From the sequence record OL856099: a stretch of DNA of 64,000 nt. One strand, written 5' to 3'. The stretch's first letter is position 1; each line of letters opens with the position of its first letter. Position numbers and translations under genes: made by a program. This DNA is from Shigella phage CWP003. Positions 3,532 through 59,531 of this stretch are shown piece after piece. A model generated the notes under the pieces. The model was not told the DNA's origin. It saw only the letters and a list, made by a program, of their open reading frames with translations, and did not search any database.

Positions 3532-3588
3532 CACTAATTAAGGCGCGGCTATATCGGTTGTTATACATATTCAAACCATAATTATTGT

Positions 3589-3617: not shown

Positions 3618-3646
3618 ACACAATACTTATTTGAGGGTGGATGCGA

Positions 3647-42925: not shown

Positions 42926-44008
42926 ATGGCTAGTTTAAGAGAAGAAGCAAAAATAATCGAAGAGTTTTTGACGGAACTCCAAAGAGGCATTCCAGAAGAT
43001 GAACGCGTCATGACCGTGTTTGCTCCTGAAGCAACAGTGCAGACTGACGAGCGCGGCAAAAAGATTAACAGCAGCTTCTGGCCTAAGCCTTGGAAGCTTG
43101 GCAAGCCGCTGATGCAACATCAGAACGGTTACGCCTGCATAAGTTCAATGCGTAAGTCTCCCAACCCAAAGACAGGCGAGATGCGATACTGGCGCACGGA
43201 ATCGGCTTTCGGTCATGGCATGGCGATGATGGTCGACGACATCGGACACGGTAAAGGGTCCAAAGGCGATTTGGATTTGGAGTTCTTTTTCGAGCGCCTA
43301 AAACCAACCGTCATTGTCGAGACTTCGCCGAACAACCACCAGCTGTGGTACTTCTTTAAAGACCCGATTGACCATCTTATCCAGTTCAAGGCATTTCTTG
43401 GGTCTTTCGTAAACATGGTACTCAAGAAGGGCGGCGACAACACGATTAAAGATGTGACGCGCGTTGGCCGTGTTCCTGGGTGTATCAACAACAAACGTGT
43501 GACTCACGACGGACCTTACAAATATGTCGATGAGAACGGCGACCCGTTCCGCTGCCGACTTGTTCATGCAGACTACTCTTTGCGCTACACAATCGAAGAG
43601 ATTTGCCAAGCCTTCGGTTTCCACGTCGTTATGCCGCAAAAGCGTGAAATTCAAATCGACGTTGACGAATACAAATATGACGCTGTTTGGTATAAGATAG
43701 CCCAGCAAATCCTTGCGCGCAATAAGATGGGCGAAGGGTCCGATGGCGATGTGGTTGAAAACATGTCAGGTAAATGCCGCATCATCTGTCCTTGGGGTGA
43801 AGAGCACACCAACGGCGACCCATACGGCGCTTATTTTCGCGGCCCAATCCCTGGCGCTGAACATGAATTCGTTTTCGGTTGCGCTCACGACTGCCACCGG
43901 AAAGGGGAAGGCAAGAAAGGATGGACCGCTTTTGTTGAAGCAGTAGTTATGCCTTATATTGAGAATCAACTTGATATGATAAATCGTCGCGCAGGTGGCA
44001 TAAAATAG
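42926..44008 (+). CDS. putative DNA primase (primase-polymerase-like) with C-terminal Cys/His cluster
   Basis: AAGGAAAG RBS; acidic MMVDDIGHG segment; CPWGEEH...GCAHDCH cluster; upstream of P-loop helicase-like gene. Confidence 0.4.
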   Translation: MASLREEAKIIEEFLTELQRGIPEDERVMTVFAPEATVQTDERGKKINSSFWPKPWKLGKPLMQHQNGYACISSMRKSPNPKTGEMRYWRTESAFGHGMAMMVDDIGHGKGSKGDLDLEFFFERLKPTVIVETSPNNHQLWYFFKDPIDHLIQFKAFLGSFVNMVLKKGGDNTIKDVTRVGRVPGCINNKRVTHDGPYKYVDENGDPFRCRLVHADYSLRYTIEEICQAFGFHVVMPQKREIQIDVDEYKYDAVWYKIAQQILARNKMGEGSDGDVVENMSGKCRIICPWGEEHTNGDPYGAYFRGPIPGAEHEFVFGCAHDCHRKGEGKKGWTAFVEAVVMPYIENQLDMINRRAGGIK

Positions 44009-44066
44009 TTTGCTTTTATTTTTCTAGCAACTATAATCATTTTATGAACTGAAGCAGAGGTGATTT

Positions 44067-44213
44067 ATGCAAAGCGAAGAATTGAACATCGAGCTTGAAG
44101 GTCTGTTAAATTCGTTAGAACCTAAGCACGTAGAGCTTCCCACCCTTGAAGGTGTCATGGCTCACCACCAATCGGCTGCGGCCAAACACTACTCTGAATT
44201 TGTTAAGGAATAA
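44067..44213 (+). CDS. small hypothetical protein (48 aa)
   Basis: GAGGTGA RBS; below ORF-table cutoff. Confidence 0.3.
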   Translation: MQSEELNIELEGLLNSLEPKHVELPTLEGVMAHHQSAAAKHYSEFVKE

Positions 44214-44215
44214 AA

Positions 44216-44506
44216 ATGAACGAACCAAAAATGATGACCACTGAAGAAGCACAAAAACTTCGCGTGGAGAACGAGCTGAAGCTTGTCAATGAAATTCTTC
44301 CTCTGTTTAAAGGCTATGCGGTTGAAGAAGTCGTTGGCGCAATCCTTAATGTGTCGACTCACGTGGCGATGAATCTGAATGCAGAGCGTTTCAATACTTT
44401 GCTGACGATCAACAACTTTACTGTCAGTGCGACATTTACCGTTGAGCCAGTCAATTTTGAAGAGGCTGCAGCCGCGATTCAACAACAGAGAAATCAAGAG
44501 GTGTAG
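44216..44506 (+). CDS. hypothetical early protein
   Basis: ATG 3 nt after upstream stop. Confidence 0.45.
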   Translation: MNEPKMMTTEEAQKLRVENELKLVNEILPLFKGYAVEEVVGAILNVSTHVAMNLNAERFNTLLTINNFTVSATFTVEPVNFEEAAAAIQQQRNQEV

Positions 44507-44507
44507 C

Positions 44508-44771
44508 ATGGGCGCTTTCCGCAACGAGTTCATTTGGAACGTTACAAGCAGTCTTTCGACTTGTCCTAACTGTACGAGCGATGTTATCAAGGTGCGGCAG
44601 CATCGCAATGCAGAGGAAGGTGCCTGGGAGGACGGCGACCTTGTAGAGTGCCAGTGCTGCTCTCACGAAGGCGTGGTGGAGCTTTACGCCGGAGAAGGTT
44701 GCCCACCAGCAGACCGTTCAGCACGCGTTGAATGGGATGCGACAGACTCCATCGGTGATACTCAACAGTAA
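44508..44771 (+). CDS. small Cys-rich (zinc-ribbon-like) protein
   Basis: CPNC...CQCC cysteine pairs; ATG 2 nt after upstream stop. Confidence 0.4.
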   Translation: MGAFRNEFIWNVTSSLSTCPNCTSDVIKVRQHRNAEEGAWEDGDLVECQCCSHEGVVELYAGEGCPPADRSARVEWDATDSIGDTQQ

Positions 44772-44789
44772 ATTTAGGTATAGATACAT

Positions 44790-44894
44790 ATGAAAGCCGT
44801 AAAGAAATACACATTAATCATTTCCCTTGTAATCATCCTGGGGCTATTATATGTATTGGATATGGCATATTATTTGGCAGGGGTGAGTAAATGA
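44790..44894 (+). CDS. small hydrophobic membrane peptide (34 aa)
   Basis: MKAVKKYTLIISLVIILGLLYVLDMAYYLAGVSK; stop overlaps next start (ATGA); not in ORF table. Confidence 0.3.
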   Translation: MKAVKKYTLIISLVIILGLLYVLDMAYYLAGVSK

Positions 44895-45181
44895 ATATTG
44901 TAATTCTTTATGGTGAGAATATCAGCGATGACGACATCGAAGTTGCCGTTGATGTTTACGGTATCGATGAGGTGAAACGTGTTGAAGAAATTAATGGCTC
45001 AAATCTTAATGAGATTGCCAAAGAAGCTGGTTGCCCTTCTGAAGAGATTCTGGTGGTTACTAACGATGACCTGTCTTCTATGGATTGTTTGCGTCGCATC
45101 TTCACCGATTGCCAATACCTTCATTCTGTTCAGTCAGTAAACAAATTGAGAAAGGCATACGCTGACCAATTTCCTTGCTGA
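44891..45181 (+). CDS. hypothetical acidic early protein
   Basis: ORF followed by terminator hairpin. Confidence 0.45.
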   Translation: MNIVILYGENISDDDIEVAVDVYGIDEVKRVEEINGSNLNEIAKEAGCPSEEILVVTNDDLSSMDCLRRIFTDCQYLHSVQSVNKLRKAYADQFPC

Positions 45182-45235
45182 TAGTTCACCAGTTATATTG
45201 CTTTAAACTGAGTTTTACTATATTAATATACAACG

Positions 45236-45262
45236 CCAGATTTCTGGCGTTTATTTACCGCA
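45236..45262 (+). terminator. rho-independent terminator
   Basis: CGCCAGA-TTTC-TGGCG hairpin followed by TTTATTT. Confidence 0.4.
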
Positions 45263-45317
45263 CCCTGAAAGGATATATCCATGCAACAATATAACAAAGC
45301 CGTATCAGGAGGATTAA

Positions 45318-46988
45318 ATGTCAATTGAACATGACAATCTTCCAGAGGATACAGGTGATGAATTTGGTGCAATCTTTGACGAAATTCAAGACGCTGGTGT
45401 TTCAGAAGAAATGCAAGCGGCAGAGCAGCAAGGCACCAGAGCTAAAATCAGCCTACAGCACAAGGCTGTTGAGAAAGATGCAGAGCGCATGGAATGCTAC
45501 GGTGAAGAAGACTTGGTTGAAAGAGCACGTTTGCTCGCCTCACTTCAGGTAATCAAGTTCCCTCATTATAAACCGACGAAAGATGATTTTGTTCTTCAGG
45601 CGGACCGGACGAGTGACATGAACCGTTATGCGGTTTTCGACGCGTTGTTTGATAAGGGAAGCGGCATCGTCCCATTCCCTCACAAAGATACTTTTCGTGG
45701 ACGCTTAGTCGACCATCGCGGCGAAACATTCACCGACCGGACGTTGGAAGTCACAGAGATAGTTGCCGCTGTCGATGCAGCAGGCCTGTCCAACCCAAAC
45801 TCACGTCAGGTCGCTCAATCCTATAAGGAATGGGCCATGCGTTATCAGCGCGACGACCTGATGGACTTCTTCTACAAGAAGCTTCCTGAATGGGACGGTA
45901 CTGCGCGCATTGAGAAATACCTTATCGAGCTATTCCGACCGTTCGATACAGAGTTAAACCGACAAATCGGTGTGTATTTTTGGCTATCGCTCTATAACCG
46001 CCTGACCAACCCTGGCTGTCAAGCGCCAATCTCCATCGCGCTCATCGGCGGCCAGAACGCAGGGAAGAGTTATTTTAGTAAGCTGCTTTGCGAAGCTATT
46101 ATGAACGACCGCCACGCAACACCGATTCCGTTGAACTTGGCCGCGCAGAACTTCAACCCGTTCTTGCGAGCTATTACGGGTCGCTCAATTATCGCGAACG
46201 TTGGCGAGATGACGGGCTTTAAAAAGGCCGACATCGAAAACATGAAGGCATTCCTGACTAAGACGGAAGATGACCTGGACTTCAAATTTGAAGACACGCA
46301 GGTCAAACCACGCCAGTGGATTGCTATCATGGACGGCAACGAATACGCAGGCATGCAGCGTGACGATACGGGCAACCGTCGTGTGTATCCTATCTTTGTT
46401 GGCCAACTCGCCGACAAGGACGGGCAACCGAACTGGTCAAAAGACTTCCAAGCTGACCTTTCCACTTTGAAAGAAGACGTTTGGCAACTGATGGCTGAGT
46501 GTGCTGCGTGGATGGAGAAGCACGGCGAAGCAGGTTACAACGCGTTTGTCGGTGAAACGTCTCGCATGCTTACTGAGTTCAGTAAGAACGAAATGGAACG
46601 CGCTCGCGGCGTTATCCGTGATGAGATGGTCGACAACGACCTTGTTGAAGTCGTCATTACCGCGCCTTATGACCGACATCACAGCGGACGCTGGCACATC
46701 ACCAGTGGTGCAATCGCTATGGGATTCAGAGCTAAGTGCGGCAAGTCGCCTTTCTCACGTACCCTTGCGCCGCACATGTCGAAGCTTGGATTTGAGCCTG
46801 CAACCTATCGCAACCAGCGCGGCTACTTTACGCCGCTGATTAAGAATGAAGCAGGGGAATACATTTCTGACTTGATGACTATCTTAGCGTATCTTATTCG
46901 CGACGAGTCTGACCCTGAAGATATTGAATTCTTGAAGAAGGTTATTGAACGCAAACGTTCTTTAGGAAGAGATAAGGATGAATTCTGA
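45318..46988 (+). CDS. P-loop NTPase, primase-associated helicase-like
   Basis: CAGGAGGA RBS; Walker A IALIGGQNAGKSY; 556 aa; follows primase-like gene. Confidence 0.5.
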   Translation: MSIEHDNLPEDTGDEFGAIFDEIQDAGVSEEMQAAEQQGTRAKISLQHKAVEKDAERMECYGEEDLVERARLLASLQVIKFPHYKPTKDDFVLQADRTSDMNRYAVFDALFDKGSGIVPFPHKDTFRGRLVDHRGETFTDRTLEVTEIVAAVDAAGLSNPNSRQVAQSYKEWAMRYQRDDLMDFFYKKLPEWDGTARIEKYLIELFRPFDTELNRQIGVYFWLSLYNRLTNPGCQAPISIALIGGQNAGKSYFSKLLCEAIMNDRHATPIPLNLAAQNFNPFLRAITGRSIIANVGEMTGFKKADIENMKAFLTKTEDDLDFKFEDTQVKPRQWIAIMDGNEYAGMQRDDTGNRRVYPIFVGQLADKDGQPNWSKDFQADLSTLKEDVWQLMAECAAWMEKHGEAGYNAFVGETSRMLTEFSKNEMERARGVIRDEMVDNDLVEVVITAPYDRHHSGRWHITSGAIAMGFRAKCGKSPFSRTLAPHMSKLGFEPATYRNQRGYFTPLIKNEAGEYISDLMTILAYLIRDESDPEDIEFLKKVIERKRSLGRDKDEF

Positions 46989-47635
46989 TGAATAAAGCAA
47001 TCAACATCGCTAAATTCTTTCAACATCTCGGTGAACTGAACAAAGAGAGTGACGTTCACGGAGAAGAAATGAACCGGATGATTTCAACCGTGTTGCGTGG
47101 TTTTGGTTACGATAAGGACTCAATCACCTGTAAGCGCACGAAGCTTGTCGATGAGACATACCTTTACTACGTTGAATTGCGCGTAGGCAAAGATTTGATG
47201 ATCATCGACCCTAAATTGGAAGGGGCGCACTGTTTTGGCGCTCACCCTCGTGCGAGTGAATTCAAGGGTCGCGGTCGCAACCGACTCCAGAAGCTTGATG
47301 ATGCAGGCGACCTGAACATCTCGATGTTCCTCAAAGAGTTCCTTGCTCTGCCGAAGGTTGCATCTTCAACGGGCCGTGATGACCTGTGCAAGATTGGATT
47401 CAGAACTAAAGATTTGCGCAATGCGCTACGCAAGAAGGGATTTGTGCCTTCTTATGATAACGTCGCCGCGCTGATGGCTTCCATGGAGGAAGCTGAAGCA
47501 ATGGACAAGGTGCGCGGCTATTTCCTGAATACAGGCTACACAATGTATGAGTGGCACACCAAAGGATTGACGGTCGCCGACTTCATCTATTCATTAGAGC
47601 AGAAGTATGTACGCAATATGCAGGCCACAGGATAA
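46988..47635 (+). CDS. hypothetical protein
   Basis: ATG overlapping upstream stop (ATGA). Confidence 0.45.
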   Translation: MNKAINIAKFFQHLGELNKESDVHGEEMNRMISTVLRGFGYDKDSITCKRTKLVDETYLYYVELRVGKDLMIIDPKLEGAHCFGAHPRASEFKGRGRNRLQKLDDAGDLNISMFLKEFLALPKVASSTGRDDLCKIGFRTKDLRNALRKKGFVPSYDNVAALMASMEEAEAMDKVRGYFLNTGYTMYEWHTKGLTVADFIYSLEQKYVRNMQATG

Positions 47636-47674
47636 TTATCATCAAAATATTTGCTTTTCTGACGAGGTGATATT

Positions 47675-47899
47675 ATGATTAATTTAGACAGGATTGAGTT
47701 AGCACTTAGTACCTTAATCAAATATTACCAGTTTGCTTTTAAGGCTAGTTTATTTGGCTTGTTCAATCCTCATCAAGCAGCAAAGGCGCGAAGCAATGCC
47801 AACCGCCTGCGCTGCACTGGTATAGTCATCCACGACCGGATATTGACAGAGGGTAGATTCAGCCATGAATACACAAGGGAGAATAACAAAGCAACGTAG
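47675..47899 (+). CDS. hypothetical small protein
   Basis: GAGGTGA RBS. Confidence 0.35.
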   Translation: MINLDRIELALSTLIKYYQFAFKASLFGLFNPHQAAKARSNANRLRCTGIVIHDRILTEGRFSHEYTRENNKAT

Positions 47900-48074
47900 A
47901 GCTTTACAAGTCCTCATCCACTACCTGACACGCCTTTATCCAACGGCGCACGAGCAGAATCCATCAACTGGTCACCTGTTTAAGCGCCGTAACCTTTCGT
48001 TGAAAACATTCGCTTTAATCCAATACGACCGCTACCTGGACGGGCGCTACTGTGGCCCGAAGGACTCACTATGA
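47865..48074 (+). CDS. hypothetical small protein
   Basis: GAGGGTAG RBS; overlaps upstream ORF by 35 nt. Confidence 0.35.
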   Translation: MNTQGRITKQRRALQVLIHYLTRLYPTAHEQNPSTGHLFKRRNLSLKTFALIQYDRYLDGRYCGPKDSL

Positions 48075-48349
48075 TTACTACATACAAAGTGTTCTTTGTC
48101 AAGTGCACATCATCGATTGATGACCAGTTTACTGCTGGAAAGAATTATCCCGTGATTTCTGAGTCAAGACTAGATATAATCTTGAACGATCATGAAATCT
48201 ATGAGCCGATGCCAGCAACTGCGTTTGATGTTATCGGTCACGTTCGGATTAAGACGAATATTGAAACGATGCATGACCCGTTGTTCAAGAAGCAGATTAA
48301 GAATGCCATGCAAGACTTTTGCGCAGCAATGTTTAAATACTATAAGTGA
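48071..48349 (+). CDS. hypothetical small protein
   Basis: ATGA start/stop overlap. Confidence 0.4.
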   Translation: MITTYKVFFVKCTSSIDDQFTAGKNYPVISESRLDIILNDHEIYEPMPATAFDVIGHVRIKTNIETMHDPLFKKQIKNAMQDFCAAMFKYYK

Positions 48350-48356
48350 GTTGAAG

Positions 48357-48578
48357 ATGAGAAAGAAAACTCTTAAGGCTGGGGACCGCATCCGTTGGAT
48401 GTCAGGACAGAATATGCGCGCAGGCACCATCCTTGAGCTGGATCAATACCTTACTGATTCGCGTGGTCGCAATCACTATCGCGTTCGAATCGATACGGTA
48501 AAAGAAGATGACAAGTCACTGGTTGGTGAAGTGGTCATCGTTACTCCACGTCAAATTAAGGCGGCTTGCGAAGCATGA
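48357..48578 (+). CDS. hypothetical small protein
   Basis: ATG at 48357 within table ORF 48192-48578. Confidence 0.4.
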   Translation: MRKKTLKAGDRIRWMSGQNMRAGTILELDQYLTDSRGRNHYRVRIDTVKEDDKSLVGEVVIVTPRQIKAACEA

Positions 48579-48732
48579 ATAAATTTCAGTTCAAAGATAA
48601 CAAGATCAGTAAAGCAGACGCAATCAAGCAGCTTCGCCGCGTACTTGAAGCCAGCGGCCATACAAAAGAGCGTGCACGCGTCTTAGCCAAAGAACATTAT
48701 AAACGTTTTGTGTCACAAATCAGAGGTTGACC

Positions 48733-49080
48733 ATGGCTCATGTTAAAGATGAAACGCTGTATGGCGCAGAGATTAAGAAGCGCGTGCGTGAGATGGCTGA
48801 AGGCGGTACGTTGATACCGTCGCGAGTCCGCTGCGACCACGTGATTGGCGTGTCCGGTACGAAGGAGATGGGCGTGTTGGTAAAAGACATTCGCGTTGGC
48901 GATGTCATGGTCATCGACCGACAAGCGCGAGTTGTTATCCAGGTGCAACCGAACGATGATGAAGGATGTGTCCTATTGAAGCTGAAGAAGCTTTCATCCA
49001 GCCCAGCAAAGGCCGTCATCAAGAAGGTCTGGCCCGAAGGATTACGCAAACTCATTCGTCGACCAGTGGAGAATGCATAA
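48733..49080 (+). CDS. hypothetical small protein
   Basis: ATG at 48733 after GAGG. Confidence 0.4.
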   Translation: MAHVKDETLYGAEIKKRVREMAEGGTLIPSRVRCDHVIGVSGTKEMGVLVKDIRVGDVMVIDRQARVVIQVQPNDDEGCVLLKLKKLSSSPAKAVIKKVWPEGLRKLIRRPVENA

Positions 49081-49358
49081 TGAATAAAGATACCTTCAAC
49101 GAAAGATTGGCGAAATTTGAAAAAGAGCAAGGTGAAAGGCCGTTAAAAGTACGTTTGAATGTTGATAGAAATTACGGTTTGGACATTCAGACTTATAGCT
49201 TGTGGCTGGTAGGTCGTTCGAGCTTTGACGATGCATTAATAATGGGAGTTGACACGCTTTTCTTAGAAAGATTTAAAAGCAATAAAAAGGCTATCGATTG
49301 CTTATCACGATATGAAAAATGGCTTGTTAAGTATTATAAAGAACGGGAGAATGTATAA
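49080..49358 (+). CDS. hypothetical small protein
   Basis: ATG overlapping upstream stop. Confidence 0.4.
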   Translation: MNKDTFNERLAKFEKEQGERPLKVRLNVDRNYGLDIQTYSLWLVGRSSFDDALIMGVDTLFLERFKSNKKAIDCLSRYEKWLVKYYKERENV

Positions 49359-49594
49359 TGGAAGATTATATTAATTCTATGTACATGGCATTCTATGTCG
49401 TGCAACTTCCCAATGGCGCGGTATTTTATGGCGAGTATACCTTTGACGTTCAATATGACGTCTCAGAGCGTACAGTGTTAACAAGGGAGTTGATTGCGGA
49501 CCTTAAGGACGACATCAAGCGCGTCGCGCGGCAGCAGTTCAATTTGGATGACACCGTCATCGTTCGAATTACCGGAATAACAGAGGTGCAGTGA
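49358..49594 (+). CDS. hypothetical small protein
   Basis: start overlaps upstream stop; GGGAGAA RBS. Confidence 0.4.
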   Translation: MEDYINSMYMAFYVVQLPNGAVFYGEYTFDVQYDVSERTVLTRELIADLKDDIKRVARQQFNLDDTVIVRITGITEVQ

Positions 49595-49923
49595 TGACCC
49601 GTGATCAGATACTCGCCGCGCATGAGCGTGGGTTGATAAAGGAAGTGTGGAAGAAGGCCAATGCCTTTGCTGATTCTTATTACTTCTTAAAGAAGTGCAT
49701 CAAGCAAAACGCAAAGATGGATAACACTGTATTGACATTCAACCTTTTGTCTAACGGAGCGAAGCTTGATGCAATATGCGGTTGCAGAATTGCCAGTGTG
49801 ATGTTTGAACGAGGTGCTCACAAAGACTCTTTCTTCTATCAATTCTCTCACCGGACGGGTGATACAAAGATAACAAGGACGCGTGAAGAGCTGGAGATTG
49901 ACCTACTCCACTATGTAAAATGA
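49591..49923 (+). CDS. hypothetical small protein
   Basis: ATGA overlap. Confidence 0.4.
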   Translation: MMTRDQILAAHERGLIKEVWKKANAFADSYYFLKKCIKQNAKMDNTVLTFNLLSNGAKLDAICGCRIASVMFERGAHKDSFFYQFSHRTGDTKITRTREELEIDLLHYVK

Positions 49924-49928
49924 ATATC

Positions 49929-49976
49929 AAAAAGGTGAGCTAAATGCTTGCCTTTTCTTTTATCAATACTTATACT
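49929..49976 (+). promoter_or_regulatory. conserved promoter box, copy 1
   Basis: CAAAAAGGTGAGCTAAATGCTTGCCTTTT, then TTGCCT-17-TATACT; near-identical copy at 51441. Confidence 0.4.
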
Positions 49977-50008
49977 CTTTTCATCAAGACTAACAAGCGA
50001 GGTGAATT

Positions 50009-50257
50009 ATGGAACGTTATATAGATGCAGAGTGCTTGATAAGTGCAGGTTTGAATGAGGCTGTAGAAGGAAGTAAATATGCCATCTGTCAATCTGATTA
50101 TCCGTACAAAGATACTTTTTGGATTGAATTTGGATCAAAAGGGAGTAAGCACCACGTCACTTATGACGTTTGGAAAGCACCAAGCGGACTTTTTTACATT
50201 TTAAAACGTCATTGCCAGCCAGAGTCAGGCGCATTGGCCATATTCAAGGAGGTGTGA
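50009..50257 (+). CDS. hypothetical small protein
   Basis: GAGGTGA RBS. Confidence 0.4.
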   Translation: MERYIDAECLISAGLNEAVEGSKYAICQSDYPYKDTFWIEFGSKGSKHHVTYDVWKAPSGLFYILKRHCQPESGALAIFKEV

Positions 50258-50259
50258 TT

Positions 50260-50577
50260 ATGATTTACTTAGGCATCGACAAGGAACAAGACGAGCGGTT
50301 AGGAAGCGTATTAAACGTGGACTTAAACACATCTGTACACATCAAGCCTTGGCCAGAGGCGCACCCCGACGTAGTTGTACCCGTTGCGCCTTGGGCGCGT
50401 TACGTTGCCATTGACAATGATGGACTTGTCCATTGTTACTCAGAAAAGCCGACATACTTCGAAAAGTATCACCAATGGCTTATGACTGGATGGGCATTGG
50501 TGCGCTGTTGCGGCGAAGTCGGTCTGGAAGGCTGGAGCTTCGAGGCCAGTGAATCGTGTGTCGAGGTGCAATTATGA
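50260..50577 (+). CDS. hypothetical small protein
   Basis: AAGGAGG RBS before ATG 50260. Confidence 0.4.
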   Translation: MIYLGIDKEQDERLGSVLNVDLNTSVHIKPWPEAHPDVVVPVAPWARYVAIDNDGLVHCYSEKPTYFEKYHQWLMTGWALVRCCGEVGLEGWSFEASESCVEVQL

Positions 50578-50792
50578 ATGCCGCGCTGGGTAAGTTGTCT
50601 TTTAACAAGCGCAATGAGCTGCGCATGGTATCGCGCTTTCAACAAACGCATTTATCACTAATCAAGATTGCAAACAAGGCCTACTCTCTAAATTGTCCTG
50701 AAGAAGAATGGAAAGAATTGAATGAGCGTCGTAAACAATTACAAAAGGCTGCATTCAAGCTGCAGCAATATGCTATGGAGTATGCAAAATGA
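50574..50792 (+). CDS. hypothetical small protein
   Basis: ATGA overlap. Confidence 0.4.
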   Translation: MNAALGKLSFNKRNELRMVSRFQQTHLSLIKIANKAYSLNCPEEEWKELNERRKQLQKAAFKLQQYAMEYAK

Positions 50793-51181
50793 GAATGAAA
50801 CGTTGCCCGTATTGCCACGATGTGATGCGTCTATCACACGAAGGATTTGTTAATCACATGAATGGCTGTGATAAGAATCCTAGAAATGAAAGCAACCTTG
50901 AAGAAAGAATGTTTCTGGTGTCATTCAAGTATTCAGCTTATGACGCGCAACTGGCTTACGGTGCGAGCGGTGCACCAAGTGCTATTAACTGCCCAACGAC
51001 ATTGAGAAGTGACATCGACTCAATCCAACTTGCGGCTTGGATTAACGTTAAGGAAGGAATCACGCCGCACTTTATCGCGCGCATCCAATCCCAGATTCTA
51101 CAAATCAAGCGCGAATACAACCGTGACATCACTGAAGTGAAGGTGCTTTCCATTACGCCGATGAATAAGGAGTTGCCGTGA
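50789..51181 (+). CDS. hypothetical protein with N-terminal Cys/His zinc-binding-like motif
   Basis: CPYCH...H...C near N-terminus; ATGA overlap. Confidence 0.4.
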   Translation: MRMKRCPYCHDVMRLSHEGFVNHMNGCDKNPRNESNLEERMFLVSFKYSAYDAQLAYGASGAPSAINCPTTLRSDIDSIQLAAWINVKEGITPHFIARIQSQILQIKREYNRDITEVKVLSITPMNKELP

Positions 51182-51438
51182 ACAAGGGTCCGATGACTAA
51201 GTTAGCCGTTGCCGCGCGGAAGCTTCGACAAGCCGTTAATGGGTCGCGGCCCGTGGTGTTAACACTCGACGATGCAAAGGCACTGGTAGAGCTACTCGAC
51301 GAGCACAACCGACGCAAGAATCTGGAGAACACATTACGCTGGCGCGTCACTCCAGCCGGGCGGGAGAGCGAGAAGAAAGCTTACTTGCGACGCAAACTAA
51401 GGTCAGTCGGCCTCCACGAAGAGGCGAAGAAGATTTGA
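51178..51438 (+). CDS. hypothetical small basic protein
   Basis: GTGA overlap; Lys/Arg-rich. Confidence 0.4.
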   Translation: MNKGPMTKLAVAARKLRQAVNGSRPVVLTLDDAKALVELLDEHNRRKNLENTLRWRVTPAGRESEKKAYLRRKLRSVGLHEEAKKI

Positions 51439-51440
51439 TT

Positions 51441-51488
51441 CAAAAAGGTGAGCTAAATGCTTGCCTTTTTATTTACCTGTATTATACT
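51441..51488 (+). promoter_or_regulatory. conserved promoter box, copy 2
   Basis: same box as 49929; TTGCCT-16-TATACT. Confidence 0.4.
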
Positions 51489-51516
51489 TATTTCATCAAG
51501 CAAAGGAGAATTGATT

Positions 51517-51822
51517 ATGAGTTATGACGAAAGGTTTGGCAGAAGCGGATTATTTCATGACGCTGTACACAAAGACAGCCAAGATGTTGTCTGCGTAGCA
51601 TTTAATGAATCTTATTACGGCGTGTTCAAGCCGTTTAAGGTCGGTGAGACATACGAATTGTTTCACGGCTGGTTGACGCGTCGCAACAACTTGCCTGATA
51701 TGGAAGTATGGTGGATAGAATACAAGGGTCAGGCTCATCGGTGCAAAGTTGTAGAGATGCACGGCGTCAAATACTATCAATCTATTATCAGCGGCTTTGT
51801 TTTTAAAGAGGGTGAGCTATGA
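51517..51822 (+). CDS. hypothetical small protein
   Basis: AAGGAG RBS before ATG 51517. Confidence 0.4.
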   Translation: MSYDERFGRSGLFHDAVHKDSQDVVCVAFNESYYGVFKPFKVGETYELFHGWLTRRNNLPDMEVWWIEYKGQAHRCKVVEMHGVKYYQSIISGFVFKEGEL

Positions 51823-52124
51823 GTACAGAAGCAATGAAGAAAAAGGTTTTGAACGCTTTGCAAGAAGCCGTGAACTGTGGTGCCATTAAAACGTTCACAG
51901 AAAGGAACGTCGGTGAAGTGACGGTGCACGGATTTAACAATAACAAAAATGGAATTGCAGCCATCATGCTTTTAAAGAATAGCGATGACACATTCATCCT
52001 TTACGTTGGCGGATATGAGCTTATCGTTGATGATTTGTTTATCACTTGCGCTGACGGCCTTAACCCGATGTTAACGTTCGAGCGTCGCGGCATCCGTGTT
52101 GCAACATTTGGAGGGAAGTTATGA
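51819..52124 (+). CDS. hypothetical small protein
   Basis: ATGA overlap. Confidence 0.4.
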   Translation: MSTEAMKKKVLNALQEAVNCGAIKTFTERNVGEVTVHGFNNNKNGIAAIMLLKNSDDTFILYVGGYELIVDDLFITCADGLNPMLTFERRGIRVATFGGKL

Positions 52125-52306
52125 GTACCGAAGTCCACAACGCATCAGCCTTGGTAAGCTTTTACCGTAACAAAGGCGTGTCGCTCGTTAAAACGCCGCA
52201 AGGGATGTTGTTCTTTGGCACGCGATTCCTGAAAGCATCGGAGCGTGAAACGCTGTCCAAGTTCGACCAGAAAACATTACACGCAGTTTGGAGAAGACAA
52301 CAATGA
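52121..52306 (+). CDS. hypothetical small protein
   Basis: ATGA overlap. Confidence 0.35.
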   Translation: MSTEVHNASALVSFYRNKGVSLVKTPQGMLFFGTRFLKASERETLSKFDQKTLHAVWRRQQ

Positions 52307-52596
52307 GACTAAGCCTAGCGCAAATTCAAACATTGTACCGAATGGAAGATGGAACGCCATACATGCTGCGCGGCGACCGCAAGAAGGCTTATGAAAAGCG
52401 GCCATCACTGTTCCACGACATCAATGCGCCGTCAATCCCTGTCTTATTCCGGTTGGGCCTTGTTGATTGGGCAGCGCCAGGAGAGAAAGACCCGACGCGC
52501 TATTCATCCGTGGTGATGACAAAAGCAGGTCGCGCGGCATTAAAAGAAATTAAAGAGAGTATGGCTGGAGGTAAATATTATGGCATCAAATCTTAA
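52303..52596 (+). CDS. hypothetical small protein
   Basis: ATGA overlap at 52303. Confidence 0.4.
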   Translation: MRLSLAQIQTLYRMEDGTPYMLRGDRKKAYEKRPSLFHDINAPSIPVLFRLGLVDWAAPGEKDPTRYSSVVMTKAGRAALKEIKESMAGGKYYGIKS

Positions 52597-52816
52597 AGCC
52601 CGTTTATTATTCATCAAGCCGCATGTGCCGTATAAGATTAGCAAACGCACCTGGCTTAATATTTACAACCGCAGCGGCGACCGTTGCTTGTACAAGGCGA
52701 AGCGACGCAAGAAGGTATATTTAAAAGCGGTGATGTCGAAGCCCGTCGATGCATTCACCATCGGCGAAAATGAATTGTCAATCGGCTATCAAATTGAACT
52801 CGGAGTAAAGAAATGA
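52580..52816 (+). CDS. hypothetical small basic protein
   Basis: GGAGG RBS; overlaps upstream by 17 nt. Confidence 0.35.
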   Translation: MASNLKARLLFIKPHVPYKISKRTWLNIYNRSGDRCLYKAKRRKKVYLKAVMSKPVDAFTIGENELSIGYQIELGVKK

Positions 52817-53322
52817 AAATCGAACAACTCGAAGCAGTATTGGAAATGGCCGTAAAGGCAGGCGCAATCAAAAGCTATCGTCGCGAGAAGTCAGATAGCG
52901 ACAGGGTGTTTTGTCGCAACTTCTATATCGTCGGCAACCTTAACGACCACTACGCCATCGAGTGGTATATTAACATAATGACCCTTAAGTCGCGCACAAT
53001 GGAGCTTTGGTGCGATGACATCTGTCTTTCGAATACTCACCCAAGCTATGATGTCGCCCTGGCATTCTATCACGGAAGCCGTCAACCTGTCGCCCACATC
53101 GGTGAGAAGCATGAGCATCTTAAGGCGCAACCAGAGGAATCAATGGAAGGCTGGATTGAATGGGCTGGCGGCGAGAATCCGGTGCCTGGTAAGAAGGTCA
53201 AGTATAAGTTGCGCGACGGCGATGAATCAAGAAAGCCTGTTCTTTCAGATGATTTGAGATGGGAGATGGTTGACGATTCTTATGCAGCTGACATCATCGC
53301 TTATCGCGTCGTGGAGGAATGA
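52813..53322 (+). CDS. hypothetical protein with C-terminal GGENPVPG domain (paralog of 54206)
   Basis: C-terminus WAGGENPVPGKKVKYKLRDG...DIIAYRVVEE shared with 54206-54781. Confidence 0.45.
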   Translation: MKIEQLEAVLEMAVKAGAIKSYRREKSDSDRVFCRNFYIVGNLNDHYAIEWYINIMTLKSRTMELWCDDICLSNTHPSYDVALAFYHGSRQPVAHIGEKHEHLKAQPEESMEGWIEWAGGENPVPGKKVKYKLRDGDESRKPVLSDDLRWEMVDDSYAADIIAYRVVEE

Positions 53323-53663
53323 TGGAAGAGCAAGAAGGCCGTGAACTAACGTTCGACGAGCAAATGAAAGAGCTTCAGCGCACATCGCCTCTGCGCGGTA
53401 AGGTTGTTGACATTGAGGCGAGCGAATCCAATCTCACCAAGTGGCGGCTCAAGTGCACCAGCACAAGCAAGGATATGTTAAGCTTCAAAGTCGGTCAGAC
53501 TTATTTGCTTTATGAGGCAAAAGGACTTATTATTGATGGAAGGCAAATTGTCTTCACGGTCGTCAACGGGATGCGTTGGTTCGTGAAGCGTGATGTCGAG
53601 GGTCGTGACATGTTTGTCGCAGGCTTTCCAGAAGCAAGATTCCAATTGGAGAAGATTAAATGA
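53319..53663 (+). CDS. hypothetical small protein
   Basis: ATGA overlap. Confidence 0.4.
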   Translation: MMEEQEGRELTFDEQMKELQRTSPLRGKVVDIEASESNLTKWRLKCTSTSKDMLSFKVGQTYLLYEAKGLIIDGRQIVFTVVNGMRWFVKRDVEGRDMFVAGFPEARFQLEKIK

Positions 53664-53992
53664 AATTGAAATGGTATGTGGACCCTGAGCCAACAGGCCA
53701 ATACAGGTCATTCCAACGTCGCGGCTGGCCGACTTGTTACAACGGTAATCCCGATAAAGAAGATTGCGAGCTGCTTGCCGCCATCGTAAGCCTCGACCAT
53801 CACGGCTATGAAGGCCACTACGCGAGAGCAACCAACCTTCGGCTCAAGGTGCGCATCCATTTCAAGGTCGCAGGCGAGGACCGCACCGGACTCTCCAAGG
53901 AAGAGTTCAGCAGCATCGCTGAAGCAAAGGCATGGCTCAAGGCATTCTATAAGAACAACCCTAAATTCTATCCAACTAAGGATGCGTCATGA
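53660..53992 (+). CDS. hypothetical small protein
   Basis: ATGA overlap. Confidence 0.4.
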   Translation: MKLKWYVDPEPTGQYRSFQRRGWPTCYNGNPDKEDCELLAAIVSLDHHGYEGHYARATNLRLKVRIHFKVAGEDRTGLSKEEFSSIAEAKAWLKAFYKNNPKFYPTKDAS

Positions 53993-54222
53993 CCGATAAA
54001 CAATACGCAGTCGGGCAGCGTGACATCGAGCAACTCGACGAGGGCGGCTATTATACGCGCCACATCTATGCCATGACGCATGAAGGACTTTACAGCAAGT
54101 CTGACATCGCTGCTGAACTGGCCCATCGTGACTTGCAAATTGACATGTTGCGTCTTGCTCTTGAGAAGCAAACACAAATCGCCATCGAAATTTTGGAGAA
54201 GTTAAATGATACAACGTTATGA
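53989..54222 (+). CDS. hypothetical small protein
   Basis: ATGA overlap. Confidence 0.4.
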   Translation: MTDKQYAVGQRDIEQLDEGGYYTRHIYAMTHEGLYSKSDIAAELAHRDLQIDMLRLALEKQTQIAIEILEKLNDTTL

Positions 54223-54781
54223 TGTTGATTATTGCACGCAGCACGCTTGCACATGCGAAGTTGTAAAGGATGATGAAGGCGGCTATGTTGAATATGAGGA
54301 CTATGCCGCGTTGGAAGCGAAATACAGTGAAGTAAAAAGTCGCGTCGAGCTGGAAGCGAAACATAGTGAAGTTAAAACGTATGCAGTAAACTGCAACGAC
54401 GCGTGGCTTAATACAAAGGGTGATGACACCTCTGGTTCATATGTCAAGTTTTCTGATTATGCCGCGCTGGAAGCGAAATATAGTGAAGCGCAACGCGAGT
54501 TGGTTGCATTACGCTCACAGGTCCGTGATGCATCGGCGCTCGTTAAGCAGTTGCACGATGTTGTTGCTACTATAGTCGTGGATGTTGATGCGCCGAAGGA
54601 AGAAGCGTGGACCGTGTGGCACGGTGGAGAGAATCCGGTGCCTGGGGAAATGGTTGAATACAAGCTGCGCAATGGAGAAGATAAAGTGCTGTCAAGACTC
54701 TCTGACCATCTTCACTGGGGTCATATAGGCGCGTTAAAGGGCAGCGACATCATCGCTTATCGGGTCGTTAAGGAGGGGTGA
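54206..54781 (+). CDS. hypothetical protein with internal DYAALEAKYSE repeat and C-terminal GGENPVPG domain
   Basis: GGAGAAG RBS; internal duplication at nt and protein level; C-terminal paralogy to 52813 gene. Confidence 0.45.
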   Translation: MIQRYDVDYCTQHACTCEVVKDDEGGYVEYEDYAALEAKYSEVKSRVELEAKHSEVKTYAVNCNDAWLNTKGDDTSGSYVKFSDYAALEAKYSEAQRELVALRSQVRDASALVKQLHDVVATIVVDVDAPKEEAWTVWHGGENPVPGEMVEYKLRNGEDKVLSRLSDHLHWGHIGALKGSDIIAYRVVKEG

Positions 54782-55314
54782 TGGGTAACAATGCAGGATG
54801 GGGCAAGCCGCGATACTCCAAACTTGCCCACTACTTTGACAATGGCGAACAAATCAGCTTGTGCGGCAAATTCAATAAGGGCAATACGGAGTTGACCGAC
54901 TCTCAAGAAATGGAGTCAAGTTTAACAATTGGTGATTGCGCGAAGTGTCGCAAGGCATTATATGAATTATTAACTCTAAAGGGATTGAAAGTTGCAAAAT
55001 CAAGGGATGAATGGGTCATGAACGTCTGTGAAGGGAATACAGAATTAATGGATGAATGGCTAAAGACGGATGCGGTCAATGCCATATTCAAAAGGAATTA
55101 TAAGACCTGTATGCGTTACAAGATGAAAGATGATATTATTTTTATGGTATTATCTTATTCAAGGAACACAACGGACGTCAAAAAGCTTCGACAATATCGC
55201 CACAAGGTCATGTGTGAATTGCGCCGTTTAGGAGTGATTGTTGATAATAATGTCATTAAAACGGAGTTGGAGAAGCGGGATAAAAGGAATGGTGACTGGA
55301 AGGTCAGCGGATAA
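54778..55314 (+). CDS. hypothetical protein (last gene of early operon)
   Basis: GTGA overlap; followed by 850-bp non-coding region. Confidence 0.45.
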   Translation: MMGNNAGWGKPRYSKLAHYFDNGEQISLCGKFNKGNTELTDSQEMESSLTIGDCAKCRKALYELLTLKGLKVAKSRDEWVMNVCEGNTELMDEWLKTDAVNAIFKRNYKTCMRYKMKDDIIFMVLSYSRNTTDVKKLRQYRHKVMCELRRLGVIVDNNVIKTELEKRDKRNGDWKVSG

Positions 55315-55580
55315 AGAACACTGTATTGCGTGTTTTGAATAATGGGATGTGTACAATTGGTCGCTTTACGCGGCCTTTTGTTGTTGTTTGGGTCGTGTTT
55401 CGTGATTGAATAATTATGAGGCGATGTTTTATTTATTAATTGTGCGGAAATATTTAGAAATATATATAGACAGGATTGTTAATATTTTAATAGTGTATGG
55501 CTATCGGTCCGTGGTGTTTGTTAGGAATTATCTATGGATTGAAATTTTAGTGTCGTGAAACGTGGTGTTTGAACATATTT

Positions 55581-55937
55581 GATACGCGTAAAATACGGCT
55601 AAAAATTAAGCGTATCATGGCTGCAGGCCGCGCCGTTCCTGGATTCCTCTTTTCCAAATTGGTACACCCTTACGTCATGATACGTCATGGTTTTTTATCC
55701 GTATCAGTGTACAGCCCTTGCCGCGCCTGGCTTGTACATTAATCTTACGGATGATACGGATAAAACTGGGCATCGTTATATATATAATTTGAAAAATTAA
55801 TTAACTCCATTTTGAATTAATTTAAATTAATTTTTTTCTACATCCTCATACTTATGTTAATTTATATATAACGTATTATCCGTAAGATATAAGTAAAAAC
55901 AAAGACTTGCGGCAATACGGATGATACGTCATGATAC
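55581..55937. repeat. second iteron-like array (GATACGGAT / ATCCGTATC units, GTCATGATACGTCATG variants) around an AT-rich core at 55770-55870
   Basis: CTTACGGATGATACGGATAAAAC 55744-55766 and TTTATCCGTATCA 55696-55708 closely match segments of the 3271-3531 array; AT-rich core shares ATTAATTTAAA(T)TA. Confidence 0.6.
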
Positions 55938-56103
55938 GCTTCAACCAGCCAGTAGCGGCTAAGTCATTGATTTGCATAACAAGCGGCGAAAGGGATGGAC
56001 TTCTTTTATACGTATCAAACAGTACACCACGCACCACGGTCCGATATTCATTCAGCACTATGATTTATGTACGTTTACAGCCAATTTGAACATCAATCTG
56101 CAC

Positions 56104-56132
56104 TTGAATATAATGTTCAATCATTATATAAT
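56104..56132 (+). promoter_or_regulatory. sigma70-type promoter for gene 56167
   Basis: TTGAAT-17-TATAAT. Confidence 0.45.
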
Positions 56133-56144
56133 TCACACTATTAA

Positions 56145-56168
56145 TTTGCACTATGGGATTTGCACTAT
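56145..56168 (+). promoter_or_regulatory. two tandem TTTGCACTAT motifs between -10 element and start codon (operator-like)
   Basis: copies at 56145-56154 and 56159-56168, the second overlapping ATG 56167. Confidence 0.45.
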
Positions 56169-56640
56169 GAGTCAAGATTATGTAGCAATGCCTGAAGACT
56201 TTGAAGACCCGCGATTTGCAGAGCATAATCAGGCATTATTCGATGAGTTCATCGACCTTGTTATTCAGGGCCATGACATGCGCGCAGCTTTTGCACTAGT
56301 ATTTGGCATGGAGGTTGCGACCGATAACTACACTGGCCAGCGAATCCTGTGCACTCAGCGCAATCCGTACTACAAGATGCGCTACAAAAAGCGTATGGAA
56401 GAGATGCCATTGAAGGAATTGTGGAGCGTAAAGAGTTCCATTCACAATTTAGTGAAGCTTGTGCGTGATCCAGAAGTCGCAGCATCAGCCAAGCTTAATG
56501 CCATTCGTGAACTGAATATCATCTACGGCATTACGATGATTGATGAAAACGGCAATAGTAAAATGGGCCGTTCCATGGATGATTTCTACAAGGATTTTGG
56601 AGAGGCGGCCAAAGAGGGTGAGCAATTCTCCCGCCACTAG
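56167..56640 (+). CDS. hypothetical protein (157 aa)
   Basis: ATG at 56167 within table ORF 55972-56640; GGGA 8 nt upstream; promoter at 56104. Confidence 0.45.
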   Translation: MSQDYVAMPEDFEDPRFAEHNQALFDEFIDLVIQGHDMRAAFALVFGMEVATDNYTGQRILCTQRNPYYKMRYKKRMEEMPLKELWSVKSSIHNLVKLVRDPEVAASAKLNAIRELNIIYGITMIDENGNSKMGRSMDDFYKDFGEAAKEGEQFSRH

Positions 56641-57775: not shown

Positions 57776-58090
57776 TTACTCTTCGTCGTCTTCGATTAAT
57801 TCGAGGGCGAAGGCGTAAGCTTTGCTATCGTAATTAACTAAAACGGCGAGTTCGAACTCGTTAATAAACGCCGTTTTACCGCATAAATTTAATTCCGCAT
57901 CGACTTCGAAGAATCCGTTTTCGTCGCGCTCTAAGCGAGAAGCAGCGAGTTGCTCGATTACCGTCGCGTCGTTAATTTCTTCGCCTAAGCGAACGCCGGA
58001 GAATTTCGCGAGAATTTCGCCGTAAGTAAGCGTAACGCCCTGGACTTCGGCGGTTGCGTTTTCGAGGGTAAAGCGGGTAACGATAGCCAT
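57776..58090 (-). CDS. small acidic protein (island gene)
   Basis: AGGAG RBS; 104 aa, Asp/Glu-rich; own sigma70-type promoter. Confidence 0.5.
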   Translation of the reverse strand: MAIVTRFTLENATAEVQGVTLTYGEILAKFSGVRLGEEINDATVIEQLAASRLERDENGFFEVDAELNLCGKTAFINEFELAVLVNYDSKAYAFALELIEDDEE

Positions 58091-58158
58091 AACAAACTCC
58101 TAGTTGGGAGAGGCGTTAACGACCTATTCGTTAACTCATCCCGTCCCGATATGAGTAC

Positions 58159-58186
58159 ATTATAATATAGTGTAGAAAAAAGTAAA
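58159..58186 (-). promoter_or_regulatory. sigma70-type promoter (minus strand) for 57776 gene
   Basis: reverse complement reads GTGCTTTACT-16-TATAAT. Confidence 0.5.
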
Positions 58187-58230
58187 GCACTTTTTCGATA
58201 AAAATGCGATAAATTATTTTATCTTTTTTC

Positions 58231-58314: not shown

Positions 58315-58617
58315 ATGACTACTTTAATCTCTTCCATCCTTACTTACGACGAAGACCGCTTAACCGTTCGCTCTCTTATCGCCGCCGTTAACGCGGAACT
58401 CGAAACTAGCATTATTAAAGCGCGCGCCGTCGCCTTCGTCGGCCTTTCCTTCGACGATATTAAGTATGCAGAGTATAGCGCCATTCGCGTCGTTACTACC
58501 GACGATAACGCCGTTACCCTTATCGAGACGGTTACGCCTCGCGGCGAAGCGTTAATTATCGTCGAGTATATCGACGTAGAAGGCGATAAAGCTTATAAAT
58601 ATTTTATCGCAGAATAA
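58315..58617 (+). CDS. small acidic protein (island gene)
   Basis: GGGAG RBS 7 nt before ATG 58315; 100 aa. Confidence 0.5.
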   Translation: MTTLISSILTYDEDRLTVRSLIAAVNAELETSIIKARAVAFVGLSFDDIKYAEYSAIRVVTTDDNAVTLIETVTPRGEALIIVEYIDVEGDKAYKYFIAE

Positions 58618-58629
58618 CGAAAAAAGTGC

Positions 58630-58658
58630 TTTACTTCTTCGTACACTAAGACTATAAT
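58630..58658 (+). promoter_or_regulatory. sigma70-type promoter for 58726 gene
   Basis: TTTACT-17-TATAAT in same CTTTACTTCTTCGTACACT box; conserved leader TTTATATCGAGA. Confidence 0.55.
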
Positions 58659-58725
58659 GTTTTATATCGAGAGGGGATGAGGTAGCGAATAGGTCGCTAC
58701 CCTCCCGACTAACTAGGAGAATATT

Positions 58726-59016
58726 ATGATTACTTTAGCCGCTATCCGTTCCGCTCGCGTCGAAACTTCCGAAAACTCTAACGTATTTGGCGAAAAACTT
58801 AAAAACGTTTATCTCTTTAACGTAGATGCGACTATCGAAGAGCTTCATAGTCCTATCGATTTTAGCGAATTTACGGAACTCGAAGAGGAAGATATTACTA
58901 CCTTCCGCGTTACTATCGAAGGTAAGGTTTATTTTGCTACGGAGTTCGGCGGCGAATATCTCGCGGTATCCGAAGGCGAAGGCCGTTACTCTTTCTTTAA
59001 AATCGTCTCCTTATAA
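58726..59016 (+). CDS. small acidic protein (island gene)
   Basis: AGGAG RBS; 96 aa, Glu-rich; terminator downstream. Confidence 0.5.
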   Translation: MITLAAIRSARVETSENSNVFGEKLKNVYLFNVDATIEELHSPIDFSEFTELEEEDITTFRVTIEGKVYFATEFGGEYLAVSEGEGRYSFFKIVSL

Positions 59017-59060: not shown

Positions 59061-59531
59061 TCGTCCCTATCTCGATGCGCTTCTCCGCGAAAACTCCTTT
59101 ATCCTTCCCTTCTTCGTCGCATAATCTTCGTCGAGATGCGCCTTAGTTCGCATAACAGGTATTACGTTAAATGGAGAACATCGCGTAAGTCCTTGTTTTA
59201 TATAGACACCTATATCGGACCGTTAGGGAGGGTCGCGTAAGTCGTTGTTTTATAAAGGCGCAAAACTTTCCCTTCGTTCCGAACTAAAACGAGAAATATG
59301 CCGACCCTTCGCCCGAAAATAGTACGCGTGCGAAATTACCGACATCTAGAATAATCCCCACCGATATTATCCTGCGCGCAATCATTCGCTTTCGAATCAT
59401 TATGCTTCATATTATTATGCGTCGAATCATTAGCTTTCGAATTGTAACGCTGGAAACTGTAACGGCGATTGATTATTGCGTTCGTGTGGTTTTTAGGGCA
59501 TGGGTCTTTTGGTGCGTTTTGGTACTTGATG

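Follow-up and report, generated by a model that had tools for sequence, protein, structure and literature searches.

Within the 64,000-nucleotide stretch of the Shigella phage CWP003 genome analysed here (record OL856099; hereafter the window, numbered from its first letter on the strand as given), two paralogous modules are found in which short repeats flank an A+T-rich core on both sides, one at 55.56-56.04 kb, upstream of the small terminase gene terS (site 2), and one at 3.25-3.55 kb, upstream of the prohead protease gene (site 1). We propose, at about even odds (a probability near 0.5), that site 2 is an origin-like module of the kind served by the Rep-type helicases of Staphylococcus aureus pathogenicity islands (SaPIs) and doubles as the packaging start of the phage, and that site 1 is a second, uncut origin. 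The window comes from a Wifcevirus: the region is 90-97% identical to 28 Escherichia and Shigella phage records of this genus, 68-kb myoviruses distantly related to the Pseudomonas PB1-like phages (Pbunavirus); the paired element itself occurs in at least five genera, and the modules are not described in the literature that we searched.

Site 2 occupies most of a non-coding stretch (55315-56166) that holds no open reading frame (ORF) longer than 60 amino acids except a TTG-extended reading of the terS frame, in agreement with the roughly 850 ORF-poor base pairs described in an earlier, sequence-only reading of this DNA. The terS product is clearly homologous to the small terminase (TerS) of Pseudomonas phage E217, known from structural and genetic work, and its counterpart is annotated as TerS in the Wifcevirus record Mansfield. 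The features of this stretch, with strands in parentheses, are the following.

55359-55375 (+): terminator-like hairpin, GGTCGCTTTACGCGGCC with a run of T behind it, downstream of the gene that closes the rightward block.
55494-55571: GT-rich tract with exact CGTGGTGTTTG at 55510 and 55561, inverted partner of the CACCACG tract at 56024-56040; a flank specific to site 2.
55580-55617: outer left pair of units forming an inverted repeat, TGATACGCG (+) and AGCGTATCA (-).
55627-55631 and 55720-55724 (-): GCCGC, left-side copies of a polar GCGGC motif.
55668-55706: CTTACGTCATGATACGTCATG (+, 10-bp period), then TTTTATCCGTATCA (-).
55744-55765 (+): inner left arm, CTTACGGATGATACGGATAAAA.
55766-55871: A+T-rich core, 82-86% A+T, itself an imperfect palindrome (fold z = -3.5).
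55808-55809: base matching the virion DNA left end, AATTAACTCC / ATTTTGAA, in the apical loop of the palindrome.
55872-55887 (-): inner right arm, CGTATTATCCGTAAGA, an inverted copy of the left arm.
55909-55941 (+): GCGGC (55909-55913), then CAATACGGATGATACGTCATGATACGCTT, three units.
55955-55987 (+): two outward GCGGC (55955 and 55983), with a match to the integration host factor (IHF) consensus between them at 55960.
56004-56040: a TTTTATACGTATCAAA unit (-), then the ACACCACGCACCACGG tract, which pairs, inverted, with the GT-rich repeats on the left.
56086-56132 (+): two overlapping sigma-70-like promoters, 10/12 consensus positions, reading into terS.

Site 1 is composed as follows.

3243 and 3338: GCCGC, left-side copies of the polar motif.
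3252-3284 (mostly -): outer left units, ACGCGTATAATGACGTATCATCCGTATCA.
3309-3336 (+): inner left arm, CTTACGGATGATACGGATGATACGCGT.
3337-3427: A+T-rich core, 85-91% A+T (fold z = -8.8).
3428-3531: right side, with a right arm of three units (-) at 3431-3458, GCGGC at 3472, TGATACGGATAAAA (+) at 3485-3498 and TTTTATCCGTATCATCCGTATCA (-) at 3509-3531.
3545: a further GCGGC.
3589-3617 (+): sigma-70-like promoter, TTGCCT-17-TATAAT, reading into the prohead protease gene.

Both sites follow one plan, in which on either side an inner arm of two to three tandem units with a 9-bp period points towards the core, units of alternating orientation continue outside the arms, and the whole module forms a long imperfect palindrome, with z scores for folding as single-stranded DNA of -8.8 at site 1 and -3.5 at site 2; at site 1 the inner arms make up a perfect 22-nt inverted repeat (3312-3333 / 3434-3455). 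Between each module and the gene that follows stands a sigma-70-like promoter directed at that gene, in agreement with the consensus at 10 of 12 positions. The homology of the two regions, already remarked upon in the sequence-only reading, amounts to 71% identity over about 400 alignment columns, and an unbiased self-BLAST of the window pairs them with each other (E 9e-8 and 4.5e-5). As that reading held, CTTACGGATGATACGGAT (55744 and 3310) and TTTATCCGTATCA (55694 and 3510) recur in the same orientation, and the variants it named can be located (GTCATGATACGTCATG at 55674; TACGTCATGATACG at 55671 and 55925). The A+T-rich segment of some 100 bp that it placed between the iterons is the core at 55776-55875, with 86% A+T; no other 100-nt stretch of the 64 kb is as A+T-rich as this one and 3342-3441 (85%), the third in rank having 77%. 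Exact GATACGGAT has nine matches on both strands of the whole window, all of them within 3275-3530 or 55697-55761, and TGATACG has 21 (about 8 expected window-wide), 17 of which fall in the two modules. Such a signal greatly exceeds chance.

Other parts of the earlier description needed amendment. The iteron unit, TGATACG(GA), does have the 9-bp period ascribed to it, but the TACGTCATGA variant has one of 10 bp; of the GT-rich repeats two exact CGTGGTGTTTG copies stand, the remainder being merely a loosely GT-rich stretch; and the module, said to end at 55940, in fact reaches about 56040, with repeats at 55912-55941 and 56004-56019 and the CACCACG tract at 56024-56040. The suggestion of an origin, or of two origins, agrees with the SaPI-type layout and with the matching helicase and primase encoded by the phage, but it overlooked the genome end at the core. 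The window contains three matches to the DnaA box (TTWTNCACA), none in or near the modules; neither module has a GATC (Dam) site, and the single IHF consensus match in the modules is uninformative.

By comparison with its relatives, the left end of the virion DNA falls in the core of site 2. The records of Mansfield (PhageTerm), WFC and Ro157lw, independently deposited, all begin at the base matching window position 55809, about 6 bp off the point of dyad symmetry between the inner arms and 358 bp upstream of the terS start (56167); the chance of an end lying within 10 bp of either module centre in about 68 kb is roughly 6 in 10,000. In Serratia phage MTx a terminal repeat of 3,566 bp (PhageTerm) has its boundary at the left edge of the A+T-rich core of the homologous module, and the fixed read end at which Pseudomonas phage Ab27 was opened ('a single fixed read termination, no DTR', that is, no direct terminal repeat; Essoh 2015, PMC4482731) maps in the core as well, between the module's two homology blocks. 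Since the known ends lie in the terS-proximal module, site 2 would at least also be a packaging start, and homology to these records shows 55808/55809 to be the left virion DNA end and the start of the direct terminal repeat, the point at which the packaging enzyme would make its initiating cut.

The direct terminal repeat, which in the relatives takes in a region downstream of terS, measures 3.5-3.8 kb in Wifcevirus records ('about 3.7 kb' and included in the record in the case of WFC), with a right boundary at 59509/59510 in Mansfield and Ro157lw and at 59590 in WFC. With a defined repeat, and a right end at the matching base in two records, Wifcevirus does not show the permuted ends of headful packaging; Pbunavirus relatives are reported as headful. 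The right boundary has no TGATACG units and no clear motif in common with the left end, no record reports a genome end at site 1, and a metagenome scan with CTTACGGATGATACGGAT returned mostly chance matches along with three Wifcevirus contigs, none of which ends at either core or bears independently on the ends.

Some smaller features of the terminal repeat may be recorded here. Four AATCATT[AC]GCTTTCG-like repeats lie at 59385-59445, just left of the putative right boundary, and TGGTGCG follows it (59509-59516), in MTx 13 nt later. Exact Chi complements (CCACCAGC) are clustered just inside the left end in Pantoea phage PA1 (7 in 1.8 kb; sequence L019, 1465-3037) and in MTx (4 in 1.3 kb; sequence L013, ~180-1280), in the orientation that would halt RecBCD coming in from that side; in the window CCACCAGC occurs once, at 56814 (- strand).

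Two genes of the rightward block bear directly on the proposed origin function.

42926-44008 (+): RepB-like primase, 360 amino acids (Pfam PF16793, E 4e-36).
45318-46988 (+): VapE-like / SaPI Rep-like helicase, 556 amino acids, the candidate repeat-binding protein (Pfam PF05272, E 1.6e-28).

SaPI Reps are initiator-helicases whose C-terminal winged helix binds iterons in an origin located just downstream of rep, and the origin itself has an A+T-rich centre with at least two iterons per side in opposite directions, one hexamer being thought to be loaded on each side (PMC9371898). The same layout is seen at site 2, with + units at 55744-55760, - units at 55870-55887 and more further out, and at site 1, with its 22-nt perfect inverted repeat around a 100-nt core. 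A Rep-like helicase with a predicted C-terminal winged helix is encoded on the same element, as judged from the Pfam assignment, the similarity to 7PDS and the predicted model: 7PDS is the best solved-structure match by sequence (E 4e-11), and the AlphaFold model (pLDDT 90.5) has the same entry, SaPI1 PriRep1 with double-stranded DNA, as its best Foldseek match (E 8.6e-17, TM-score 0.6 on the target) and places elements in winged-helix order (helix-strand-helix-helix-hairpin) at residues 436-504. Residues 451-556 diverge fastest, with 13-57% identity vs 56-85% in the ATPase core, and such fast divergence of the C-terminal domain fits genus-specific repeats. An origin-type module directly downstream of the helicase gene is found at site 2 of MTx, Ab27, the Salmonella phage UALMA_PCSE1, BcepF1 and the metagenome contig L046, and not in the window, so we claim that the module may work like a SaPI origin rather than that it is a member of that class. 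That the modules function as origins and that the helicase binds their repeats we infer from this layout and gene content.

Two further observations concern the helicase gene. A single GATACGGCT unit lies at 45298-45306 (- strand), 12 nt upstream of the start codon, and could be a chance occurrence or an autoregulatory site. In UALMA_PCSE1 the helicase frame, with its Walker A motif GxxGVGKS, spans the start of the circular record (positions ~68552-69920 and 1-166; sequences L022 + L021) and is unannotated there.

In the mechanism that we envisage, the C-terminal winged helix of the Rep-like helicase would bind the TGATACGGA units opposed on the two sides of the core, a hexamer would be loaded at either side and the 86% A+T core would melt, allowing the RepB-like primase to start synthesis there, with the outward T[CT]GCGGC[AT]A motifs on both sides as candidate start or loading signals. 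The terS-proximal copy, which has the extra outer flanks (GTGGTG left, CACCAC right), would be the one used by the terminase, whose cutting of that core might be owed either to these flanks or to the melted state, while the 3.3-kb copy upstream of the prohead protease operon would act as a second origin and stay uncut. A more speculative version, which we regard as rather unlikely, is that throughout the PB1-like group (Wifcevirus, Pbunavirus, Myosmarvirus, Kylevirus and relatives) a single cis element physically couples replication to packaging: the module at the junction would be an active origin for the Rep-like helicase and RepB-like primase, with T[CT]GCGGC[AT]A as priming or loading signals, the melted or forked structure so produced would be what the terminase recognizes and cuts, and copying of the terminal repeat from the junction origin would supply the second repeat copy for each packaged genome. 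Such coupling, if true, would explain both why purified TerS of this family lacks DNA binding and why reports of Pbunavirus ends conflict.

The paired arrangement is shared well beyond the genus of the window. The sequence-only reading had named absence of the repeats from related phages as evidence that would speak against it; paired modules are in fact present in 28/28 Wifcevirus records and in four other genera. Distant relatives were identified through TerS homologues and their modules paired by unbiased self-BLAST of each genome, and in each of the relatives examined the partner of the non-coding DNA upstream of terS is a second non-coding segment, 16-20 kb beyond it and ahead of the prohead protease gene. 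The module pair was located in this way in Serratia phage MTx (Myosmarvirus), Pseudomonas phage Ab27 (Pbunavirus), Pantoea phage PA1 (Kylevirus) and Salmonella phage UALMA_PCSE1; terS lies directly downstream of site 2 in every genus examined, and a search of IMG/VR with TerS returned close relatives only. Each of the five genera has two module copies per genome and its own 9-10-bp unit, as listed here together with two metagenome contigs.

Wifcevirus (window): TGATACGGA
Contig L045 (helicase 75% identical): ATGATACGT
Contig L046 (helicase 56% identical): TCTTGCGGATA
Pantoea phage PA1: ATAACGGTT
Salmonella phage UALMA_PCSE1: GCCGTTATAT / AATATCGGCT
Serratia phage MTx: ACTTTTCG
Pseudomonas phage Ab27: GTAATTTGG

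The two copies within one genome have the unit in common and are 70-83% identical beyond it, and this likeness suggests that they are kept so by a common binding protein, by gene conversion, or by both. In FEC19 and ECML-117 the left half of site 2 (TCTTACGGATGATACGGATGATACGCGTCGCCGCTATACTTTATAC) is a near-identical copy of the left half of site 1, the exchanged part (sequences L008 and L009) being the homologue of window 55742-55790, which indicates gene conversion or recombination between the modules in these two phages, as read from their sequences. Within Wifcevirus, the left flank occurs in three unrelated forms, each of which retains GT-rich repeats, a GCCGC, the inner arm and the context of the cut, and the inner left arm CTTACGGATGATACGGATAAAA is invariant in seven other aligned sequences of the genus despite these flanks. 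Words of the GGTG type to the left of the core and of the CACC type to the right are confined to site 2 and occur there in all five genera. A host factor binding the 9-mers was also considered and is unlikely, given that phages of Serratia, Salmonella, Pantoea and E. coli carry different units.

Beyond the lineage-specific units, the modules share a polar motif. In 50/51 occurrences within 400 bp, over ten modules from five genera, it reads GCCGC to the left and GCGGC to the right of the core, thus pointing away from it, at about 45-95 and 140-185 bp from the centre and with the extended consensus T[CT]GCGGC[AT]A[TA]. Because both flanking genes are on the + strand, codon usage cannot give this flip in orientation. 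No pentamer of the window exceeds its expected count as strongly as GCGGC (175 vs 43 expected; GCCGC 118 vs 42 expected), GCGGCAA and TTGCCGC reach 6.6-7.5 times expectation, and the genome-wide excess of GCGGC is partly tied to codon frame; no polarity of GCGGC is seen at genome scale, and in the window it is local to the modules (3243-3549 and 55627-55987).

A serious rival, although we consider it on balance unlikely, is that the element is purely a packaging site, with the TGATACGGA arrays acting as binding sites for the small terminase ring on either side of the cleavage point and the 3.3-kb copy as an uncut decoy, as a site for TerS regulation of the head genes or as a pairing partner in a two-site, T4-style synapsis of packaging (pac) sites. 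The end mapping to the core centre in three genera and the invariable position of terS directly downstream of the module are just what such a site would give, units repeated in tandem every 9-10 bp would fit helix-turn-helix domains that succeed one another around a ring, and the Chi-complement clusters inside the end of PA1 and MTx show that a free DNA end matters there. The second copy is harder to accommodate, being conserved in five genera though no record reports an end at it, as is the behaviour of the homologous E217 TerS, which according to a review showed no appreciable DNA binding in vitro (PMC9611059); furthermore, Wifcevirus and Pbunavirus have 40% identity at the N-terminus of TerS though their repeats are unrelated, site 2 of MTx is devoid of right-arm repeats, and the lack of GATC sites argues against regulation in the manner of P1. 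Less plausibly, and in line with the alternative given in the sequence-only reading of one regulator bound at both sites, the modules could be operator arrays at which a phage transcription factor switches the strong sigma-70-like promoters of terS and of the protease-scaffold-capsid operon, an explanation that we hold to be improbable. The 10/12-consensus promoters located 60-170 bp after both modules do lead into late genes, likewise in the relatives, and the JG024 paper, which for the Pbunavirus site-1 core mentions only 'AT-rich boxes' and a predicted promoter, places that sigma-70 promoter inside the core (PMC3008698); however, at about 170 bp, with 86% A+T in its centre and as many as a dozen sites, the palindrome goes far beyond typical operator size, the other late operons (terL, portal, tail) have no arrays, with four isolated TGATACG outside the modules, and the genome end at the dyad centre would be left unexplained. 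It is very improbable that the modules have no function and are leftover duplicated DNA or a relic of recombination: FEC19 and ECML-117 do show that recombination between the copies occurs, yet five genera have kept position and architecture through a complete turnover of the sequence, GCGGC is strictly polar, and the arms stay unchanged next to unrelated flanks.

Several observations weigh against our own proposal of an origin that doubles as the packaging start. A pure packaging site would explain the position of the terminus and the adjacency of terS equally well, and the repeat unit tracks phylogeny along with both the helicase C-terminal domain and the TerS N-terminus, so that the two candidate binding proteins are not separated by this comparison. 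The helicase gene of the window lies some 8.6-8.7 kb upstream of site 2, with small genes between, unlike the adjacent layout of the SaPIs. Cumulative GC skew, which the sequence-only reading had put forward as a check on origin function, follows gene strand and gives no origin signal. As to the ends, the position given for CWP003 is taken from relatives 92-97% identical to it, and the right boundary in WFC is 81 bp from that in Mansfield and Ro157lw.

Like SaPI origins (Ubeda 2007/2012, Qiao 2022, PMC9371898), the modules have opposed short repeats, at least two per side, around an A+T-rich centre, a cognate helicase of the VapE/Rep type whose C-terminal domain is predicted to be a winged helix, a separate primase gene, a position just downstream of the helicase gene in several relatives, and a lineage-specific repeat. 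Unlike them, the phage modules are built from repeats of 9-10 bp (5-6 bp in the SaPIs), occur twice in each genome, stand in this phage 8.7 kb away from the helicase gene and carry GCGGC as an additional conserved polar motif; one core coincides with the virion DNA end, and the replicon is a 68-kb lytic myovirus rather than a satellite. The pac sites of SPP1 (pacL-pacC-pacR) and P1 (TGATCA/G hexamers) share with site 2 a cut flanked on both sides by short repeated motifs, located at or beside the small terminase gene and made as the first packaging cut (here by homology); they differ in that Wifcevirus has a reported defined terminal repeat and no Dam sites in the modules, a second, uncut copy 16 kb away, and a TerS whose homologue lacks DNA binding in vitro.

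Phage T7 has origin-type elements at its concatemer junction (phiOR/phiOL) and a primary origin at 15% of the genome, and thus resembles the present arrangement in having an origin-like element at the terminal-repeat junction, a second one 15-30% into the genome, and a terminal repeat that is duplicated during packaging; its origins, however, are phage promoters with A+T-rich DNA and no iterons, its repeat is 160 bp long and its helicase-primase is a different one. Homologous cis elements in several copies that serve one initiator-helicase are also known from herpes simplex virus (HSV; oriS/oriL), with sites inverted around an A+T-rich centre, and from the satellite phage P4 (ori/crr), with two distant iteron loci, although the proteins and sequences are unrelated and neither element stands at a genome end.

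Pbunavirus phages are among those most used for personalised therapy against Pseudomonas aeruginosa, and Wifcevirus phages are reported as unusually fast replicators. Pbunavirus-type genome ends have been termed 'contradictory' (PMC12390725), the Banzai paper treats the reports of Pbunavirus termini as contradictory and places the origins elsewhere by GC skew, and in the literature that we searched the pac site of the PB1-like group is left undefined and its origins are merely guessed from GC skew. The present analysis provides exact candidate sequences for one packaging start and two origins, and names a candidate binding protein and a conserved polar motif; if our proposal is right, both modules would have to stay intact when PB1-like phages are rebooted or engineered.

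The gene order of the window, read with a well-annotated relative as guide, is as follows.

Up to 1295: portal gene.
3641-5059 (+): prohead protease gene (DUF2213), downstream of site 1.
Up to about 25 kb (+): head and tail genes.
25-43 kb (-): replication genes.
42926-55314 (+): rightward block, with primase, helicase and many small genes.
54778-55314 (+): last gene of the rightward block.
55315-56166: non-coding stretch, 852 bp.
56167-56640 (+): terS, 157 amino acids (E 9e-33 to the phage E217 TerS structure 7UXE).

Rfam covariance models gave no match at gathering score over the whole window. A small conserved ORF of 45 amino acids (3088-3225), directly upstream of site 1, has a hydrophobic C-terminal half and counterparts in PA1, MTx and Ab27, and it resembles a membrane peptide rather than a DNA-binding protein. 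Of the internal repeats of the window, an inverted one is strongest (75% identical over 149 nt, 58072-58219 / 58597-58743); it lies inside the terminal-repeat region and brackets a short rightward gene pair. The small-gene block has a direct repeat of 87% over 62 nt (49927-49988 / 51440-51500), and the - strand replication block contains a duplication in tandem (40671-40759 / 40770-40858), about 90 nt long and 76% identical.

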